64,000 nucleotides of DNA from Chloroflexota bacterium (lineage in GTDB: Bacteria > Chloroflexota > UBA11872 > VXOZ01): NCBI GenBank assembly GCA_965220175.1, contig OZ244814.1, forward strand, positions 2,634,630 to 2,698,629, written 5' to 3'. Positions 9,541 through 59,685 of this stretch are shown one piece after another. How positions within the stretch are numbered: position 1 is the first letter of the stretch; each line of letters opens with the position of its first letter. The translations under genes and the position numbers were made by a program. The notes beneath the pieces are model-generated. The model saw only the letters and a program-made list of their open reading frames with translations. It made no database searches and was not told the origin of the DNA.

Positions 9541-11223
9541 TCACGAAGCGGGGATCACCGGCAAGAGAATGTGGGAAGGATACGCCTTGCTGTGGAACAC
9601 CGTCTGACGCGCCAGTTCCCAGCGATCCTCCAAGCCGTTGTTTTCTGCACCCGTATTGAGATTGCGGTCGAAACGCGGGAAGTTGCTTGACGAAATCTCA
9701 ACCCGGATTCGATGTCCCGCAAGAAAAACGTTGCCGATTACCCAGAGGTCAATCTCGTACTCGTACACTGTGCCGGGATCGATGAGTGACGACGATTCTC
9801 GTCCCTCGCGAAACCGCGCGCGCACTATGCCGTCGCAGAGGCTATTTGCACGACCGTCCAGATGGACATCTACCAGCTTGGCCGTCCAGTCCGTATCGGG
9901 CCGATCGCTGGCGGCGTAGAGCACCACCTTGATTGGGCCGGTCACCTCCACGTCTTCCACGAGCGGCTCGCTGGTATAGCACAATACGTCCTGGCGCATC
10001 TCGATATTCTGCTGGTCGTAGGGACCCCACGCTACAATGTGCGGCGAGCAGCAGTTGTTACCGCCAAGCGTTGGAACCGGCGCATTCGGGTCATACGTGT
10101 AGCTATCTGACGATTCGTCTCCGGGCACATCAATAGAGAGGCTGCCGTTACCATTCAACGTGTTGGCGGCCCCTTGCGAATGGAAATACCACTGCTGCCA
10201 GTCCGTACGCGCCAGCGGCCACTCGTGCTCGCTCCGCCACTCGTTGCGCCCCATGATGAAGAGCCGCAAAGGCGGTTCGTCGAGGATGCCGTTCTGCTCC
10301 CCCTTCAGCCAGTAATCGAACCAACGCAGTTCTTCCCCGTCTAGGTCAACCATTGAATCGGCGCCAAAGTCCACTTGACCCGTAACCCGCGAGGTTGAGA
10401 GCCCATGGGGCCACGCACCCATGATGAGTTGACTCTGCCGGGCTTCCTCCGATTTGCCACGAAGGCGGAGCTCGTTCCAGTTGTCGAACGTTGCCTTGGA
10501 GTAGAGGTCGAACCAGCCACCCATGTTGTACGCCGGCGCGACGACATGCTCCCAATGCTCGCTGTTGCTGGATGGCTTCCAGTAGTCGTCGTAGTGAGGA
10601 TGGCGGATCCAGTCTTTCCAAAAGTCTAGGTCACGGCCGATCTCAGTGGTGACGTCGGCCACGGGCAGCGTGCGAAAGACGCGTACCCAGTCCTCGTACT
10701 CAATGTTCTGGGCCGTGCGGCCGTGAGTCCGCGATCCCCAGGTAGCGAGAACGCCTAGCTGCAGAGCGCCATTTGTGTATCCCGGGGAGTCATAGAAATC
10801 GCATGGGGCGACGCGCGGCACGATACAGGTCAGATGCGGACTGCCGCGCCACGCCGCCGTCCACTGCGTGATGCCCAGGTAGGAACCACCCGCCATGCCA
10901 ATCTTGCCGGTACTCCAGGGCTGCTCTGCAACCCATTCCACCGTATCGTGGCCGTCGTCGGCTTCATTGCTAACCGGGTAGTAGGTGCCTTCAGAGTCCC
11001 ACCGGCCGCGCACGTCCTGGATCACCGCGGCATAGCCCTGGCTCGCCAGTTTACGCCCTTTTTCAATGTGAAGATCGGTGTTGTTGCCGTATGGCGTGCG
11101 CACGAGCACCGTTGGCGCCGGCTCTGCGTGCGGCGGCAAGAAAATGTCGGCCGATAGGGCCACGCCGTCCCGCATCGGCACTTTGGCATCAACCAGGGTC
11201 CGAATCTGTGACACGGTGCGCAC
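9541..11223 (-). CDS. CocE/NonD family alpha/beta hydrolase (acyl esterase / X-Pro dipeptidyl-peptidase-like)
   Basis: 'VPMRDGVALSADIF', 'RTPYG', 'QDVRGRWDSEG', nucleophile 'GGSYLG', C-terminal 'SSSNFPRFDRNLNTG'. Confidence 0.9.
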   Translation of the reverse strand: MRTVSQIRTLVDAKVPMRDGVALSADIFLPPHAEPAPTVLVRTPYGNNTDLHIEKGRKLASQGYAAVIQDVRGRWDSEGTYYPVSNEADDGHDTVEWVAEQPWSTGKIGMAGGSYLGITQWTAAWRGSPHLTCIVPRVAPCDFYDSPGYTNGALQLGVLATWGSRTHGRTAQNIEYEDWVRVFRTLPVADVTTEIGRDLDFWKDWIRHPHYDDYWKPSSNSEHWEHVVAPAYNMGGWFDLYSKATFDNWNELRLRGKSEEARQSQLIMGAWPHGLSTSRVTGQVDFGADSMVDLDGEELRWFDYWLKGEQNGILDEPPLRLFIMGRNEWRSEHEWPLARTDWQQWYFHSQGAANTLNGNGSLSIDVPGDESSDSYTYDPNAPVPTLGGNNCCSPHIVAWGPYDQQNIEMRQDVLCYTSEPLVEDVEVTGPIKVVLYAASDRPDTDWTAKLVDVHLDGRANSLCDGIVRARFREGRESSSLIDPGTVYEYEIDLWVIGNVFLAGHRIRVEISSSNFPRFDRNLNTGAENNGLEDRWELARQTVFHSKAYPSHILLPVIPAS

Positions 11224-11361
11224 CTCCTAAAGCTCTCAGAATTTCTCTACCACGCGGACATTCCGGCATGAATACTGTCTGTCAGGCAGTGTAGCATAGG
11301 TTGTATCTTTCCCTGCCGTGCCCAAGAACCACGGGAGCGCTTTTGGTGCTTGTACGGTAGG

Positions 11362-11390
11362 TTGGGTCTTATTAACCTGCGTGGTATGAT
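11362..11390 (+). promoter_or_regulatory. Probable promoter for the metG operon
   Basis: TTGGGT, 17 bp, extended -10 TG-G-TATGAT (11385-11390). Confidence 0.45.
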
Positions 11391-11453
11391 GGTGTGACGG
11401 CAACCACCGAACCAGACCCCTCAGTGTCACGCTGCTTCCCTTAGATTAAGATT

Positions 11454-13001
11454 ATGGCGACCTACTATCTGACAACTCCGATCTATTATCCCAACGCCAA
11501 GCCCCATATTGGCACGGCCTTTTGCACCATCGGCAGTGACGTGCAGGCGCGCTATCGCCGCTTGAAGGGCTACGATACGTTTTTTCTTACAGGCCTCGAT
11601 GAGAACAGCCTCAATGTGGAGCGCCAAGCCAGAAGCCAGGGCAAGGACCCGCAGGAATACTGCGACGAGATGGCGGAGTTCTTTCGCGACCTGTGGGACA
11701 AGCTCGACATATCCCATGACGGCTTCATCCGCACGACGGAGGAGCACCACAAGCACGCGGCGCGTCTCTTGTTGCAGAAGTGCTACGACGCCGGCGACAT
11801 TTACAAAGGCACCTATGCCGGGTGGTACTGCCTCCCTTGCGAGGCCTTCTACGCCGACGACGACTTGGTAGACGGCAAGTGTCCGGTGCACGATGCCGAG
11901 CCGGAATGGACGGAAGAAGACAACTACTTCTTTGCCCTCTCCAAGTACCAGGACCGGTTGCTGGCATTCTATGACGAGCATCCGGAGTCTGTTTTGCCTG
12001 ATTTCCGGCGCAACGAAGTCGTCAATATGGTGCGCGGAGAGTTGCGGGACTTCAGCATTTCACGCGCCAACAAGACGTGGGGCATTCCCGTACCCTTCGA
12101 CGAAGAGCAGGTGATTTACGTTTGGTTCGATGCGCTCACCAACTACATCACCGGCGTCGGCTATGGGCAGGATGACGACTTGTTTGCACGCTACTGGCCG
12201 GCAGATGCCCATGTCATTGGCAAGGACATCATCCGCTTTCACTGTGTGTATTGGCCCGCCATGCTCATGTCAGCCGGTGTCCCCTTGCCGAAGACCGTGT
12301 GGGCCCACGGTTGGATCATGTTCCGCGGCTTGAAGATAAGTAAGTCCCGTGGCACCGATGTAGACCCCTTTGAGATGGTGGACGAATTCGGGGCTGATGC
12401 GGTGCGCTACTACCTGGTGCGGGAAATCCCGTTCGACCAGGACGGCGTATTCTCGTGGGAGAGTTTCTATAACCGGTACAACGCCGACTTGGCGAATGAT
12501 CTCGGCAACCTCGTGCATCGCACGACCGCCATGATAGCGCGCTATTTTGACGGCACCCTACCCGCGCCGTCAGGAGAAACCGAACTCGACGTTTCGCTCC
12601 GCGACATGGCGCAAAGCGCCGTTGCGGGAGCGGAGCAGGGGCTCGAATCCTGGGACCTCGACGCCGCGCTCGATAGCATCTGGACGCTTGTAACGCGAGC
12701 GAATCAATATATTGAAGAAAACGCGCCTTGGGAGCTTGCCAAATCTCCCGATCAGCGGGAGCGCCTCGGTACGGTGCTCTACAACGTCACGGAGGCCGTG
12801 CGCATCCTTGCACTCCTGCTTGGTCCCTACATCCCGCAGACGGCGGATGCCATTCTGGACCGCCTCGGAGAATCTCCGCTGGCTGACGGCGCGTGGCAAC
12901 GCGGCCTTGCGTGGGGCGGTGTAACCCCGGAGCGCACAATTACGGCCGGCAAGCCGCTCTTTCCTCGCTTGGAAGTACCGGAATTCTCCGAGAGCACGTG
13001 A
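11454..13001 (+). CDS. metG: Methionine--tRNA ligase (short form without C-terminal tRNA-binding domain)
   Basis: 'TTPIYYPN..PHIG', Zn knuckle CLPC...CPVH, 'YVWFDAL', KISKS (KMSKS variant), 'LANDLGNL'. Confidence 0.96.
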   Translation: MATYYLTTPIYYPNAKPHIGTAFCTIGSDVQARYRRLKGYDTFFLTGLDENSLNVERQARSQGKDPQEYCDEMAEFFRDLWDKLDISHDGFIRTTEEHHKHAARLLLQKCYDAGDIYKGTYAGWYCLPCEAFYADDDLVDGKCPVHDAEPEWTEEDNYFFALSKYQDRLLAFYDEHPESVLPDFRRNEVVNMVRGELRDFSISRANKTWGIPVPFDEEQVIYVWFDALTNYITGVGYGQDDDLFARYWPADAHVIGKDIIRFHCVYWPAMLMSAGVPLPKTVWAHGWIMFRGLKISKSRGTDVDPFEMVDEFGADAVRYYLVREIPFDQDGVFSWESFYNRYNADLANDLGNLVHRTTAMIARYFDGTLPAPSGETELDVSLRDMAQSAVAGAEQGLESWDLDAALDSIWTLVTRANQYIEENAPWELAKSPDQRERLGTVLYNVTEAVRILALLLGPYIPQTADAILDRLGESPLADGAWQRGLAWGGVTPERTITAGKPLFPRLEVPEFSEST

Positions 13002-50481: not shown

Positions 50482-50624
50482 TGAGGCAAGGCTGGGAGTG
50501 TTCCAGCGCGTGAGCTCTTGGGAATCACTGCTCGCTCGAAAGCCTTGTCGTTTGAAATTGTCTTCCTTCCCGGCAATTGGTACAGTTTGTAATGGCTATG
50601 GAAGCGCTCCCATGAAAGCGGAGA

Positions 50625-50876
50625 ATTGCAATAGCGGTATTCGATTCACACACAGGACGTATGAAGCACTGAAGGCGGGAGGCCTTTCAAATTCGCAGGC
50701 AAAGATCTTACATGATGCCCTACGGTGAATCGAACGAGTCGCTGGCAACCAAAGCAGACATAGTCGCCGTAAGGGCGGATCTCCGAGAGCTAGAGTTGCG
50801 CATGCGGCTGCATTTCTATGGGGTAGCCATTGTGGTAGTTGGCATCTTGGCTGCTTTGGAGTTGTTGCCGATCTAG
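50625..50876 (+). pseudogene. Decayed DUF1640/CCDC90-like coiled-coil membrane protein gene
   Basis: Three pieces in shifted frames: 'AVFDSH' / 'RTYEALKAGGLSNSQAKILHDAL' / 'NESLATKADIVAVRADLRELELRMRLHFYGVAIVVVGILAALELLPI*'; no ATG. Confidence 0.65.
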
Positions 50877-51028
50877 GCGCACTGAGACAACTGTATTGCA
50901 TTTCCCAGCGGCCCCGCGCGGTTGCACCGCTTGAAGCCCGTTGCAATTCTAAACCCCTCAGAGCATGGCGACGAAAGGGTGCAAACACACCCCGGCGTTC
51001 CGTGCAGCAAGGCGAGAAGAGGCTACAC

Positions 51029-51190
51029 ATGTTCATTCAGTGGATGTCGACCCTCAGCACCGCAGACACCGTGCTCTTCTTTATATCGCTCGTCTCGATT
51101 TTCCTCATGCTCGCCATCCCCTTCGCCCTGCTCTTCTCCGTCGCCATCATCGACGAAATCCTCTCCAACCGCCTCGACAGCCTGGAGTAG
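51029..51190 (+). CDS. Small (53 aa) hydrophobic membrane protein
   Basis: RBS-like GAAGAGG, strong C-ending codon bias, long hydrophobic segment. Confidence 0.5.
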   Translation: MFIQWMSTLSTADTVLFFISLVSIFLMLAIPFALLFSVAIIDEILSNRLDSLE

Positions 51191-51228
51191 CCCGTCGCTT
51201 GCCTCTTGGCTGCCTAGCTCCGATCCAT

Positions 51229-52974
51229 TTACGACGGCTCCAGGGAATCGTTTGCATTCAGGAAGTCTTGGGGGGCTGTAAAGGCATTTAAGAAGAGGGG
51301 AGTACCGGCAAACGAAAGAGGAGAAACTGGGCCAATGGTCATGAATGAGTACTCTCGAGAAGCTAGATCGAACGATGATTGCGGGTCACGGAAGAGTTGA
51401 TAAAGATCTAAGGCTTTGCTGCGGCCACCAACCAAATCACGCAGAGCCTGAAATTCACTACCCATCGACAGACCAAACCCGAAGAAGTAAATGCGCAATT
51501 GATCTGTAATTGCGCGGTCAAGACTCGACAGCGTTGGTGAAATAAACATCCAACCAACCCCATACTTTCGGGTTGTCCGCACCGAGTCTATGAAGATTCT
51601 CCGGACTTGCTTGATAGTCTCATTGTCCAGGCTTCCAGACGGGGCTAAACGATGTGCTTCATCCATTAGGACTAGCGTATTGAGACTTCTCTTATTGGCG
51701 TAAGCGTTCTCAGCAGAGACTCGAATTCCTTCCAAGAGCCGCCTAATGATAAGCGCCTGAATCGTTTCGTTCCAAAACAGACTTACGCTGCTTTGAGCGG
51801 CTAGGTCCACAATGATCAGAGGTCTGTCCTGGGGATTGAACAAGCTGTTCAGGATTGACCCCACCGATTGTGTTCCGGTTCGACTCTTGTCAAATAGGCC
51901 CGTGATCGGTTGCCAATACTCATAGAATTCATCGGGGTCAGCATCGACATACTGCGAATTGAAGCGCTTGCGAGCTTCAGCCCCTAGGTAGAAAAGTTCC
52001 TGCACACTTTCTTGGCCAAGAATGTCCCAAGCCTTATCGAAAGACTCTCGCTTGTGCAGGTCTGTCAGTTTGACCTTCTTCTTTTGCAAATTGTCACTCA
52101 AGACTCCGGCAGCTGCTTCTTGCTTCCCACCTTTAGAAACGCTGAGCTTATCAAAAAACGAGGACTCGCTAAGGACTTGGGCGAACAATTCCCACCTATC
52201 TAGAACTAGGTCCTTCACACTTATGACTCTTGTCGTTTTCTTGATCCCAGCCAAAGCTTCTCTGACCGGAAGCTGAAAACTCCCCATAGCTCCCGAACCC
52301 GAAACATCCTGCGAGAACTCGCCTTTCGGGTCTATTACCAGAATGCCCATACTCTTGTAACGGGCATAAGCCAGCATAATCATCTTGGCCAAGACTGACT
52401 TTCCTGATCCAGTCTTGCCAAATACCCCTAAGTGATAAGCCTCACCTGCTCCATCCGCGCCAGAATCAAAGTGCTTAAACCACAACGGTAGTCTAGGCGT
52501 AGATCCGTAGACGTGGCCTAAATAAAACAACTGCTCCTTATATGGCTCAAGCAAGACGTCCAGCACACTATCATCCACTAAGTGCACATTTGTGCCTGTA
52601 GCCGGGACAGTCCCCAGACTGCTAGGGCGGTACTTACCGTTCTGGTCAGCAAAGACTGCACTGACGCCCATTTCACCTTGGTGGGTATCCTGACGTTCGC
52701 TCACAGCATCGACCGTGCCACGCTGGCGAATCAAGCTCCGCATGGTTGGGTCTTCATGCCAGATGTTTCGCAGTGCTATCTCTGTGATCTGTCCGAGCGC
52801 ATAGTGATCAGAGTTATCCTGTAGGTAGCGAAACAAAGCCAGTTCGCCTACCAACTTCTTGTTGACCGCACTAGCCAAGATGTCAAGAGCAAGTTCCGAT
52901 GTAGAAGATGGGGAACCAATTACGCCTATTCTCTCGGACTGGTCAACCAACTGGCTCATTTCTTGATTCGGCAT
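51229..52974 (-). CDS. herA: HerA-like (FtsK/HerA superfamily) ATPase
   Basis: N-terminal HAS-barrel-like region ('IGVIGSPS...GQITEI'), Walker A GKTGSGKS, 'VIDPKGEF', Walker B 'LMDEAH', 'RTTRKYGVG' Arg-finger region; RBS GGAAGG. Confidence 0.88.
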   Translation of the reverse strand: MPNQEMSQLVDQSERIGVIGSPSSTSELALDILASAVNKKLVGELALFRYLQDNSDHYALGQITEIALRNIWHEDPTMRSLIRQRGTVDAVSERQDTHQGEMGVSAVFADQNGKYRPSSLGTVPATGTNVHLVDDSVLDVLLEPYKEQLFYLGHVYGSTPRLPLWFKHFDSGADGAGEAYHLGVFGKTGSGKSVLAKMIMLAYARYKSMGILVIDPKGEFSQDVSGSGAMGSFQLPVREALAGIKKTTRVISVKDLVLDRWELFAQVLSESSFFDKLSVSKGGKQEAAAGVLSDNLQKKKVKLTDLHKRESFDKAWDILGQESVQELFYLGAEARKRFNSQYVDADPDEFYEYWQPITGLFDKSRTGTQSVGSILNSLFNPQDRPLIIVDLAAQSSVSLFWNETIQALIIRRLLEGIRVSAENAYANKRSLNTLVLMDEAHRLAPSGSLDNETIKQVRRIFIDSVRTTRKYGVGWMFISPTLSSLDRAITDQLRIYFFGFGLSMGSEFQALRDLVGGRSKALDLYQLFRDPQSSFDLASREYSFMTIGPVSPLSFAGTPLFLNAFTAPQDFLNANDSLEPS

Positions 52975-52976
52975 TG

Positions 52977-54149
52977 CTACCTTCCTGCCTCCGTCCGATA
53001 GCTATGAAGGCCAACAAACACATCATCGATGTTACCCTGATAGTCCTCTGCTAGATACTGGCTGGCAATTTGGCGAAATGCAGGAACAGCTTGGGGCAAG
53101 TGCTTCACCATCCTGTCCGCCAGATAGAGTGGGTACGGCTCCATGATGGCCGCCGTGCCACACTGATCCTTGATGCCCTGAAATGCTATGCTCAAACGAC
53201 CTTGATTGTCGGCAATTGCTCGGCTCATCTCCAACCGCAAAGCTGGCATGTAGGAGTGGGGCCGATAATAGAGAACATAGATGTCACCCAAGAGGTTAGT
53301 GACTTGGTCAACCAATTTGCTGATTTCATCCCGTTCAGCATTTTCGACAATCCCATCGGCTACTGAAGTGTCGATGTGCCATGGCTGGGAAGGCGGCAAT
53401 AGTTGAGTGGGTGACGTGTATTCACCTGCTTCCAAGATTGAGCTAAGCAGCCCGCGATCATCATAAGACTTGGGCCAGTTCAATTGGCCCCCAATTTCTC
53501 GACGGGTAGTGTATTTTGGCACTGCTATCCACTGACGGTCATTACGCTGGGCTGTTAGCACAGAACAGTAAGCTTCCAAGAAAGGCCTAATCTTCTTAAT
53601 CAGATAGTCTTCAACGGTCTTGAGGTTAGGATACTCTTTAGCTTTATTGAATCCTTGATTGAAGTAAATGGCCGGCGTGGTAAATGAACCATCCAAGAGA
53701 ACAAGCTCATGAGGGGCGTTCGCGGCCAGTAGCAACTCCATCCCAATCATCCCTGCGCGCAAAACAGACCCTGTATCAGGACTATGAGGTTCAGTCTCGA
53801 CATGCACAAAGTGGTTGGGCTCGGGCCAGAACCGCTTCTCAGAAGGGGGCGTCAAACCTTCAACCGCTACTGCGCCTGCCACGACCAGATCTGTGGCGAG
53901 CAATCTTTCAACAGCATAGGAACCGTCAACTCCACATGTGGTAGGGCTCTGCACTCGTGGCAGAGTGGAGTCTCGTCTTGCTTTGCCAGAGTCAACAAGC
54001 TGGTCCCGCCACACTTGCCTTTTCTCGCGCAACTCCTCAAAGGAGTCCAGCAGTTCCTTCCCTACCCCCTTTGTTCGGTTTAGAACCTCATCGACAAGTG
54101 ATTTTGGCAGTTCCCTAAAGCTAGACTGTTCGTCCAATGTCTTCTCCAT
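52977..54149 (-). CDS. nurA: NurA-like nuclease (RNase H fold)
   Basis: 'GVDGS', conserved E ('MIGMEL'), 'LLDGS', 'AVPK', C-terminal 'EPYPLYLAD..VK'; start ATG 54149 or TTG 54137, overlapping the upstream gene. Confidence 0.8.
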   Translation of the reverse strand: MEKTLDEQSSFRELPKSLVDEVLNRTKGVGKELLDSFEELREKRQVWRDQLVDSGKARRDSTLPRVQSPTTCGVDGSYAVERLLATDLVVAGAVAVEGLTPPSEKRFWPEPNHFVHVETEPHSPDTGSVLRAGMIGMELLLAANAPHELVLLDGSFTTPAIYFNQGFNKAKEYPNLKTVEDYLIKKIRPFLEAYCSVLTAQRNDRQWIAVPKYTTRREIGGQLNWPKSYDDRGLLSSILEAGEYTSPTQLLPPSQPWHIDTSVADGIVENAERDEISKLVDQVTNLLGDIYVLYYRPHSYMPALRLEMSRAIADNQGRLSIAFQGIKDQCGTAAIMEPYPLYLADRMVKHLPQAVPAFRQIASQYLAEDYQGNIDDVFVGLHSYRTEAGR

Positions 54150-55299
54150 CCGACCACAACTGCAACTCTTGAGGATTCCAGTCAAGATGCCGTTTCTCTC
54201 GCCGACTGCGTGGCATCAGCCATCTGTTACGATACCAATCGAAGAGTTTGTCTACAGGTTGATCAAAGTATTCCAGCTTCGAGGCACCGCCACCTAGGAA
54301 TTGACGAGCATTTTCTGCTAACGGAGAAATGAAAATCTCGCGATTAATTCCGTGATTCTGCCACTCCTGCGGCAATCCCAATGCAGTGAGCACCTTTTGA
54401 AGGACTTCTCTTCTGTTCCTAAATCCATTTCCCCATGATTCATGCTTAGCAGTGGCTCTTGAATTAGATCTAGCAAACTTCACCATAGAGTCGTAAATTC
54501 CGTTGGAAACGTGGAATTCACCATACCCTTGAGTGAACCCTACCGACCTGAACACTAATCGATCATTGAATCTCAAGCGGTTATAGAGTGACGACCTACC
54601 CAGGGCAGAGGTAGTGGTAACCAATGCAATCTGGCCGGGTAGCTCTCTTTGCTGGATCAAGGATGCCCTTCGTTCATATTTGGCCCTGAATGCTTCACGT
54701 ACTTCATTGCTCACGGCCAACAAAGCAATAAGCTTGCCTCCTAGCAAGAAAGAGTACGGCGGAACCGCCCCCAACACATAGGCGTCTACAACATGGTGAA
54801 GCCTCTCCATTCGACCTTCTTTTTCCCAACCGATCCACTGGTCCCGTTTCCTTAGACTAAAGACTGGATCACCTAAACCGAATAGGCCCATTAGCTTGTT
54901 CGAGTTTTGATCCACTACAAGAAATCTCAATCTTCGCCCATATCCCGAAGACACCGGAATGCTCCAGTGTAAACTCGCATAGCGGAATAAGAGCTCGTCA
55001 CTTGAATTCGGATGGACTTCGACCAGTTTGGGGTAGATCTTATCGATATCAATTTCTCTCCCAAAAGCAAAACGTCGCAAAAGTGAGGATTCGTGTTTGA
55101 GAAGTCCCTTTTTGCGCTGAATCAGCTTTTGGTGAACCGCTTCGGCGTGCAGGGATCTTATCGTGTCCTTATTCAAGTCATTAGGCAGGTAGAACCGATT
55201 GTCCCGCAACACAAAACCTTGCTTCTCAAATGACGCCAAAATGCGAGCTTTGAGGTGTTCTGGGTCATTCTCTTCAGTGATGTCAGGGTCAGTCGACAA
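54121..55299 (-). CDS. druA: DUF4338 / Druantia DruA-like protein
   Basis: 'WSIPVSSGYGRRLRFLV.D', 'GLGDPVF...RD.WIGW', 'GAVPPYS.LLGGKL.ALL', 'TTSALGRSSLYNR' match my recollection of DUF4338/DruA proteins; about 390 aa. Confidence 0.8.
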   Translation of the reverse strand: MSTDPDITEENDPEHLKARILASFEKQGFVLRDNRFYLPNDLNKDTIRSLHAEAVHQKLIQRKKGLLKHESSLLRRFAFGREIDIDKIYPKLVEVHPNSSDELLFRYASLHWSIPVSSGYGRRLRFLVVDQNSNKLMGLFGLGDPVFSLRKRDQWIGWEKEGRMERLHHVVDAYVLGAVPPYSFLLGGKLIALLAVSNEVREAFRAKYERRASLIQQRELPGQIALVTTTSALGRSSLYNRLRFNDRLVFRSVGFTQGYGEFHVSNGIYDSMVKFARSNSRATAKHESWGNGFRNRREVLQKVLTALGLPQEWQNHGINREIFISPLAENARQFLGGGASKLEYFDQPVDKLFDWYRNRWLMPRSRREKRHLDWNPQELQLWSDGEDIGRTV

Positions 55300-55497
55300 T
55301 TGCCAGTCTCGTTCTGCACTCGGTCTTTCCTAGATCATATCCATTATATGGCAAGACTTGGACATACATCTGACGATAGCAAGAACCTTCTCGAATGCAT
55401 TGGCACCTATTCACCAATCGTGCGAGAACACAATGCCGAGCGACGCCAGCAGAAGATACTGCCAGCGCCGCTGCGTGACTTGGTGGCCTACAGTACC

Positions 55498-59609: not shown

Positions 59610-59685
59610 TGGTACGCCTGGAGGGATTCGAACCCCCGACCCTCGGTTCCGAAGACCGATGCTCTGTCCACTGAGCTACAGGCGC
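59610..59685 (-). tRNA. tRNA-Arg (anticodon TCG)
   Basis: Cloverleaf GCGCCTG-TA-GCTC AGTGGACA GAGC-A-TCGGT CT-TCG-GA ACCGA-GGGTC-GGGGG TTCGAAT CCCTC-CAGGCGT-A-CCA; CCA encoded. Confidence 0.97.

Follow-up and report, generated by a model that had tools for sequence, protein, structure and literature searches.

A horizontally spread druA–nurA–herA gene trio in a Chloroflexota genome and its possible role in defence against invading DNA

The window analysed here is a 64,000-nucleotide stretch of the genome of a Chloroflexota bacterium (contig OZ244814.1, positions 2,634,630 to 2,698,629), and its minus strand carries a compact cassette of three genes that encode a DUF4338/DruA protein, a NurA-like nuclease and a HerA-like ATPase. 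An initial annotation, made from the sequence alone, had read these genes as a tightly coupled and laterally acquired candidate defence operon without a name, and the three co-oriented open reading frames (ORFs) were found exactly where it had drawn them:

54121..55299, minus strand: druA, 392 aa with a TTG start, a DUF4338/DruA protein
52977..54149, minus strand: nurA-like gene, 390 aa from ATG, a PIWI/RNase H-fold nuclease
51229..52974, minus strand: herA-like gene, 581 aa, a HerA/FtsK-superfamily ATPase
54121..54149, minus strand: 29 nt shared by the end of druA and the start of nurA, read directly in the sequence

The nurA ORF opens at a TTG codon (54185, 402 aa), and the ATG at 54149 gives the protein of 390 aa. 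The druA stop codon (TAG, 54123–54121) falls within nurA, as the initial annotation had noted, and the resulting overlap suggests that translation of the two genes is coupled; an overlap or abutment of druA and nurA is also seen in most related loci. The nurA stop codon (TAG, 52979–52977) is followed by the dinucleotide CA and then by the herA ATG (52974), which leaves a gap of 2 nt, and the motifs GGAGG and GGAAGG precede this start, in agreement with the spacing and ribosome-binding site described earlier. The block had also been judged to be AT-richer than its surroundings, and the GC content of the trio is indeed 0.494 versus 0.591 for the rest of the window, while GC at third codon positions (GC3) is 0.50–0.54 (about 0.52) in the trio versus 0.76–0.81 in four neighbouring genes.

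Hidden Markov model (HMM) searches placed all three products above cut-off in the families that had been predicted for them. For the second gene, the Pfam NurA model (PF09376) scored 28.4 bits against a gathering cut-off of 21; neither sequence relatives in the Protein Data Bank (PDB) nor matching NCBIfam models were found for this protein. An AlphaFold2 (AF2) model based on 42 homologues (pLDDT 81, pTM 0.81) was compared with the PDB using Foldseek, and the ten best matches were all NurA structures (E 2e-9 to 1e-7, probability 1.0). These comprise crystal and cryo-electron microscopy (cryo-EM) structures, among them 3taz_B (E 2.1e-9), 2ygk and 9x1n, and include the 2026 cryo-EM entries of T. 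kodakarensis HerA–NurA. Profile and modelled fold together confirm the assignment of gene 2 as a NurA-family nuclease. In a conservation set of 61 sequences (the window and 60 loci), at least 97% of the members share D75, E138, D153, D345 and H382 of the NurA-like protein, and H350 is near-invariant. The catalytic set of P. furiosus NurA is D51/E105/D126/H411 (PMC3300031). In the window protein, D75, E138 and D153 lie in a strand, a helix and a strand equivalent to those of P. furiosus Asp51, Glu105 and Asp126, a correspondence drawn from residue order and secondary structure and not from superposition, and D345, H350 and H382 are C-terminal. When proteins are clustered at 90%, more than 2000 relatives of this one are found; the family is compact, as 1.84 billion proteins contain 618 of its representatives at 50% identity.

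The product of the third gene was matched by Pfam DUF87 (“HerA central domain”) with 41.9 bits against a cut-off of 23.2, and by the PADLOC HerA model PDLC04105 (E 1.8e-13), with all PADLOC HerA matches being partial. It features a Walker A motif (GKTGSGKS, residues 186–193) and a Walker B motif (LVLMDE, residues 434–439), both likewise shared by at least 97% of the 61 sequences, together with a conserved TTRK motif at 467–470 that may contain the arginine finger and a highly conserved N-terminal stretch of 170 residues. A HerA profile gave weak matches in the PDB, the best of which were the defence HerAs 9c1m, 8wiv and 8xau and TdpA (8wet); the archaeal HerA entries 9x1l and 4d2i were also matched weakly. 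Among NCBIfam models, the “HerA_antiphage” family NF042943 scored 12.4 bits (cut-off 800), and the best matches were ATPases of conjugation or DNA transfer, CedD and VirB4 among them, over the P-loop region only. The initial annotation had allowed that the pair might group with vertically inherited repair copies, but it does not score as such: the repair HerA equivalog NF040819 gave 17.3 bits against a cut-off of 970.

DruA is the signature protein of type I Druantia and, to our knowledge, has no demonstrated function. The druA product was matched by the Pfam DruA model (PF14236, 376 bits, E 1.3e-112) and, over nearly its full length, by PADLOC DruA1 (PDLC00002, E 2.5e-117). An identical 392-aa protein (P0121) is present in the public protein collection, and no sequence relatives in the PDB and no matching NCBIfam models were found. 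In the AF2 model (pLDDT 83), a short N-terminal helix with a β-hairpin and a long helix precede a GNAT-like core, which is followed by C-terminal helices. The top 50 Foldseek matches of the model in the PDB are nearly all GNAT acyltransferases, at weak scores (E 0.04–0.5, TM 0.27–0.54 of target), and include the GNAT toxin 7byy and the tRNA acetyltransferase TmcA (2zpa). Many DruA homologues carry an extra N-terminal helix–turn–helix (HTH) domain, which is either DUF4096, the HTH of IS4/IS5 transposases, or HTH_24, suggesting that binding to DNA is important for DruA. DruA may be the sensor or modifier that was initially suggested; its modelled fold looks GNAT-like, if weakly, and DUF4338 has independently been called a GNAT domain by the Aravind laboratory (PMC10853773). 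Homologues vary in length: those of 480–680 aa, notably from Poribacteria (L006–L009, L012; P0159–P0210), have an N-terminal DUF4096, P0146 has HTH_24 in its place, and some also have a C-terminal extension that reaches up to the nurA start.

Related loci were collected from one genome per species across 185,579 species, which gave 222 matching stretches; the best 80, all from other genomes and picked by NurA similarity alone, were analysed. DruA is present in 75 of these 80 loci, almost always directly upstream and co-oriented, and HerA lies directly downstream in 78, while the exceptions include loci cut by contig ends, one degraded locus and four that have room for DruA but no detectable copy. 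Because the same partners recur in 75 and 78 of 80 independent loci, the adjacency of druA, nurA and herA is far beyond chance, and the co-conservation on which the initial proposal hinged is thus observed. All three genes are intact in 60 loci, across which pairwise identities are correlated for DruA and NurA (r = 0.75), NurA and HerA (r = 0.70) and DruA and HerA (r = 0.53); the trio is a co-inherited module with some shuffling. More distant NurA–HerA pairs (L081, on a Euzebya pacifica plasmid, L092, L095 and L098) lack DruA and have small unannotated genes (about 100–320 aa) directly upstream. DruA is therefore specific to the core family, and the upstream partner in this NurA–HerA clade seems to be exchangeable. 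A permuted gene order, NurA–HerA–DruA, was seen in a Desulfovirgula metagenome-assembled genome (MAG; L025).

Carriers among the best 80 loci belong to Chloroflexota, Poribacteria, Latescibacteria, Planctomycetota, Verrucomicrobiota, Acidobacteriota, Armatimonadota, Acetothermia, Bacillota, Desulfobacterota and Nitrospirota, and also include a cyanobacterium; at least 12 phyla carry the trio, in addition to one Thermoproteota (archaeal) MAG. When the window is compared with other phyla, nucleotide similarity of about 70% is confined to the trio (55254–51251), and no non-coding ends are conserved across phyla, and the three genes alone are shared. The cassette has spread horizontally, and the lateral acquisition that was initially proposed is borne out both by this distribution and by the foreign composition of the genes. 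Two Chloroflexota MAGs (L001 and L077) are syntenic with the window over the whole 20 kb, including the trio, at about 80–85% nucleotide identity, and the GC dip at the trio is also seen in L001, the only syntenic MAG that was profiled. Since the trio is syntenic in all three genomes, the cassette was gained before these lineages split and was then kept.

Some individual carriers deserve comment. The NurA of the Thermoproteota MAG (L032) is 57% identical to the bacterial proteins, which reflects either inter-domain transfer or mis-binning, and a contig annotated as “uncultured Bifidobacterium” (L054) clusters with the trios from Verrucomicrobiota, which makes the label doubtful. Cultured carriers include Thermanaerothrix daxensis GNS-1 (L038) and Chloroflexus sp. 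MS-G (L024). Many of the metagenome contigs that carry the trio are 3–6 kb long and end a few hundred bases beyond it (including L015, L017, L020, L030, L033, L034, L043, L064 and L067), which suggests that assemblies break at the trio borders owing to a strain-variable or multi-copy context; terminal overlaps of the kind expected for a circular replicon were absent from 13 short trio contigs. One Gemmatales MAG has two copies of the trio (L020 and L043).

The link to defence is drawn mainly from variants of the operon. Between druA and nurA, L072 (5352–7998) encodes a near full-length Lamassu LmuB-type SMC protein (PADLOC E 8.8e-48) and a 173-aa protein, L079 (4854–7985) a Sacsin/NOV_C protein that matches PADLOC TmtA (E 3.7e-98), and L076 (5675–7972) a pentapeptide-repeat protein. 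The corresponding insertion in L065 (1946–5616) comprises a Ser/Thr kinase plus ORC/Cdc6-like AAA protein (PADLOC CARF6 STK_AAA, E 5e-30) and a CARF/HFX_2341_N protein (CARF E 4e-19). A five-gene variant found on metagenome contigs (L087–L091, with P0100) has the order DruA, TPR protein (503–785 aa), AAA_16/KAP STAND-like NTPase (442 aa), NurA and HerA; here, a HicB antitoxin-like gene follows herA, and cobalt-transport and Fur genes are neighbours. In L041 and L045 (about 10985–12922), a gene for a 645-aa N6/N4 DNA methylase overlaps the herA stop codon, and in L085 (527–6793; IMG/VR UViG_3300010342_001259) genes for a Type III-like Mod protein (1035 aa) and a Res helicase (1051 aa) lie directly upstream of druA and are co-oriented with it. 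These three loci may represent superoperons in which restriction–modification (R–M) genes are fused to the trio. Schlafen/AlbA_2 and TmtA genes are found upstream in L002, and PIN and HicB genes follow herA in some loci. The 222 genes that occupy positions −2, −1, +1 and +2 around the related loci comprise, as raw counts, 8 N6/N4 DNA methylases and 5 PIN genes, as well as a few AAA_5, TmtA, resolvase and HTH/M78 genes. Any enrichment of methylase, PIN and R–M genes in the flanks appears modest, and the defence genes inside operon variants are the more telling signal.

Type I Druantia depends on DruE, a helicase of about 1800 aa with DEAD/DEAH and DUF1998 domains. As in that system, a full-length DruA heads the operon here, but DruB, DruC, DruD and DruE are absent and only NurA and HerA follow. 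The initial annotation had correctly remarked on the absence of DruE, as the 64-kb window contains no ORF longer than 700 aa, and no large helicase was found beside the trio in the 80 related loci, apart from the unrelated Type III Res protein of L085. The place of DruBCDE is taken by the NurA nuclease and a ring translocase of HerA/FtsK type, which is another class of motor. The DruA encoded by the druABCDE operon of P. putida pKF715A (L083) is 37% identical to the window DruA over 93% of its length, which is the same level as between many trio-associated DruAs. Canonical DruAs branch among the trio clades in a neighbour-joining tree, which is rough but agrees with the identities. Because canonical and trio DruAs are equally close while their partners differ, DruA appears to be a portable component that pairs with either DruBCDE or NurA–HerA. 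A further DruA gene on the Meiothermus taiwanensis plasmid pMtWR-220 (L082) lies beside a gene for an 1807-aa DEAD/DEAH helicase (DruE-like), with DruB–D unannotated and transposases in the flanks; this looks like a rearranged or reduced Druantia locus.

The HerA–NurA machinery of archaea and Deinococcus shares with the window cassette the NurA fold, the D-E-D-H/D catalytic set, a HerA-type ATPase and coupled neighbouring genes, and by analogy a HerA6–NurA2 assembly that processes DNA ends would be expected. In contrast to that machinery, the clade described here is highly divergent (28 bits with Pfam NurA, and 17 versus 970 with the HerA equivalog), the window encodes neither Mre11 nor Rad50, and the cassette is patchy and horizontally transferred. 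An extra upstream gene is always present, which is DruA in the core family and another small gene in distant relatives. Similarities are also apparent to Sir2–HerA, DUF4297–HerA and the “HerA/FtsK capture systems” (Krishnan, Burroughs, Aravind), all of which combine a HerA/FtsK ATPase with an effector enzyme in a small mobile operon, and ORC/Cdc6-like or STAND ATPases are added in some trio variants as in capture systems. However, the effector here is NurA instead of Sir2, DUF4297 or a restriction endonuclease, DruA is obligatory, and NurA is not mentioned in the capture-system papers. The trio variant L072 shares an LmuB-type SMC protein with Lamassu (LmuA–LmuB–LmuC), and for both systems a response to DNA ends or structures is assumed, whereas the window cassette has no SMC gene and its effector and remaining genes are unrelated to those of Lamassu.

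Each of the three proteins belongs to a family already described, and defence operons that combine HerA with an effector are well established. In PADLOC-DB v2.0.0, the only defence-annotation library compared, no model matches the NurA-like protein; DruA alone is recognised, and HerA partially. A full-text search of the openly accessible literature returned no description of DUF4338/DruA together with NurA and HerA, and no text that contains both “NurA” and “Druantia”. The trio is thus apparently uncatalogued, in line with the initial annotation, which did not recognise it as a named system.

In characterised HerA6–NurA2 complexes, the HerA hexamer pumps double-stranded DNA (dsDNA) from a free end into the NurA dimer, where it is digested (PMC12977600, PMC3300031), and a structural study describes archaeal HerA–NurA as destroying both strands and as possibly antiviral (PMC12977600). 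Because both enzymes keep conserved catalytic motifs and their genes are tightly coupled, we infer that the same machine operates here. In the proposed mechanism, the HerA-like protein assembles into a hexamer that moves dsDNA at the expense of ATP and to which a dimer of the NurA-like protein docks. This HerA6–NurA2 complex would engage free DNA ends and drive the duplex along the HerA pore to the NurA channel, where it would be digested. DruA would most likely supply the decision step: either it would recognise or mark a nucleic acid or protein, by means of its GNAT-like catalytic core and its N-terminal, often extended, DNA-binding region, and license the nuclease, or it would protect self. 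Its actual part may be to mark self, to sense an invader, to recruit the motor or to be an effector itself. As a portable front end, DruA may serve alternative motor-nuclease back ends (DruBCDE in Druantia I, NurA–HerA here), and some lineages may slot extra sensor modules between DruA and NurA, namely a Lamassu-type SMC protein, a STAND/KAP NTPase with a TPR protein, a CARF–kinase–AAA module or TmtA. On balance, and with confidence a little better than even, we favour the view that the trio is a mobile anti-invader cassette in which NurA–HerA is the effector that degrades DNA and DruA is the subunit that decides or marks. The interpretation given in the initial annotation was supported in every part that could be tested computationally, and the defence function itself is putative.

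Type I Druantia is among the least understood of the widespread defence systems, and the constant partnership of DruA with a biochemically well-understood motor-nuclease, in an operon of three genes, offers a far simpler setting for studying the role of DruA. This partnership further suggests a modular design of defence systems, with a portable front end, DruA, joined to DNA motors that can be exchanged at the back. Should the cassette prove to restrict phages or plasmids, a NurA–HerA pair would for the first time be directly shown to act in immunity, as was recently suggested for archaeal HerA–NurA (PMC12977600). A system that PADLOC-DB v2.0.0 does not detect and that is common in little-studied phyla (Chloroflexota, Poribacteria, Planctomycetota, Verrucomicrobiota) would also be added. 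It is also conceivable, if improbable, that DruA is a GNAT-type enzyme, directed at nucleic acid or protein, that gives a self/non-self or licensing signal to interchangeable motor-nucleases, so that the trio would provide minimal restriction-like immunity by means of an acyl mark or acyl-transfer sensing and not by methylation; were this true, the three genes would be a tractable model for how type I Druantia works.

Several observations weigh against a role in defence. The window cassette sits among housekeeping genes and outside any defence island, and most genes that flank the related loci are likewise housekeeping (for example Aldedh, MoeA, ABC transporters, ClpB, AspRS and PFL); because the immediate neighbours are mostly of this kind, classical defence-island guilt by association is weak. 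That three genomes of the window lineage have kept the cassette in one position is compatible with a domesticated housekeeping role. Searches returned no matches in phages and two distant matches in plasmids, both without DruA, and the trio was found on only three IMG/VR contigs. The GNAT assignment of DruA is tentative, being drawn from low Foldseek scores (E at least 0.04, TM about 0.4–0.5 of target) and one published statement, and the canonical Q/RxxGxG/A motif was not recognised by eye after the predicted β4 strand (residues 179–192, VPPYSFLLGGKLIA). Finally, herA of one distant relative, L093 (5863–14772), the sole locus with such a linkage, is followed by co-oriented and overlapping genes for a Metallophos protein (Mre11/SbcD-like, 400 aa) and an AAA_23 protein (Rad50/SbcC-like, 1187 aa), and this five-gene cluster resembles an archaeal mre11–rad50–herA–nurA repair operon to which DruA has been added. 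Together with the NurA fold and HerA motifs, the mostly housekeeping flanks and stable inheritance at one locus in the window lineage, L093 speaks for a module for DNA double-strand-break repair or recombination, in which NurA–HerA would resect ends for homologous recombination, a role already proposed for it in archaea and Deinococcus, with DruA in an accessory regulatory role such as that of an acetyltransferase tuning the complex. We consider such a function unlikely. The distribution is very patchy (222 matching stretches among 185,579 species genomes), cross-phylum transfer is clear and the composition foreign, and HerA scores far below the cut-off of the repair equivalog. Moreover, the constant partner is a Druantia protein, LmuB, TmtA, CARF and STAND modules are inserted within variant operons, and mre11 and rad50 are missing from the window.

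A defence system with reversed roles was also considered, in which DruA would be a toxic GNAT that acylates tRNA or protein in the manner of AtaT/TacT and causes abortive infection, while NurA–HerA would sense the ends of invading DNA and switch DruA on. The presence of 7byy and TmcA among the Foldseek matches of DruA is consistent with this, as is the reading of the DUF4338 GNAT domain in DndF fusions as a co-effector (PMC10853773), and HerA is known to control an effector in Sir2–HerA and DUF4297–HerA. However, these Foldseek scores are weak, DruA of Druantia I likewise does not work by itself but is accompanied by a large helicase, and NurA is unlikely to be a mere sensor since its catalytic set is intact and highly conserved (at least 97% of the 61 sequences); the scheme is rather unlikely overall. 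The horizontal spread, the contigs that break just outside the trio, the two copies in one MAG and the resolvase or recombinase genes that flank two loci could alternatively reflect mobile-element machinery, that is, a DNA-processing, transfer or addiction module that serves its own spread or maintenance and not host protection. The transposase-type HTH of many DruA homologues and the P-loop matches to CedD and VirB4 point in the same direction. Against this, there is no integrase, transposase or terminal repeat at the window cassette, no non-coding ends are conserved between phyla, the short contigs have no circular overlaps, matches in phages and plasmids are as scarce as noted above, and the cassette is inherited syntenically in three genomes, which makes a purely self-serving element quite unlikely. 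The low individual HMM scores of NurA and HerA could be taken to mean that the genes are adjacent by chance or are a decaying remnant with no joint function. That explanation is highly improbable and is effectively refuted by the linkage counts for DruA and HerA, the correlated divergence and the conserved catalytic residues; in addition, start and stop codons overlap, and the three ORFs are intact in 60 loci. A mobile anti-invader cassette thus remains the reading that we prefer.

The non-coding sequence on either side of the trio is delimited as follows:

55300..55497, minus strand: intergenic region upstream of druA, 198 bp; sequence read
50482..51228, no strand assigned: gap between herA and moeA, about 750 bp, of intermediate GC; no gene recognised

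The upstream region presumably contains the operon's own promoter, and a scan for the sigma-70 consensus upstream of druA gave no match. A terminator-like hairpin of the upstream solute-binding protein gene lies within the same 198 bp (55451–55434). Around 50.3–55.7 kb, searches for direct or inverted repeats and att sites gave short chance-level matches only, and structured RNAs were not found in the region with Rfam. On the druA side, the window continues with genes for a family-5 solute-binding protein and an ABC-2 transporter and with tRNA-Arg(TCG) at 59610–59685; aldehyde dehydrogenase (Aldedh) and MoeA are encoded on the other side. The initial annotation had placed a tRNA about 4 kb from the block, and a distance of 4.3 kb from druA was found. 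Its link to the cassette did not hold up, as the tRNA is probably irrelevant because the intervening genes are host-like in composition and syntenic in relatives; a tRNA-targeted island was rejected on the same grounds, with the genes between tRNA-Arg and druA having host-like GC3.

The decayed gene that had been suspected on one side of the trio was not substantiated: a Pfam search of 50482–51228 gave no recognisable ORF, and no evidence of a remnant was seen. This segment is conserved in the syntenic relatives L001 and L077 only, while homology with other phyla stops at about 51251, and it is at most a tentative part of the cassette. A small hydrophobic ORF is present within it at 51002–51190 on the plus strand.

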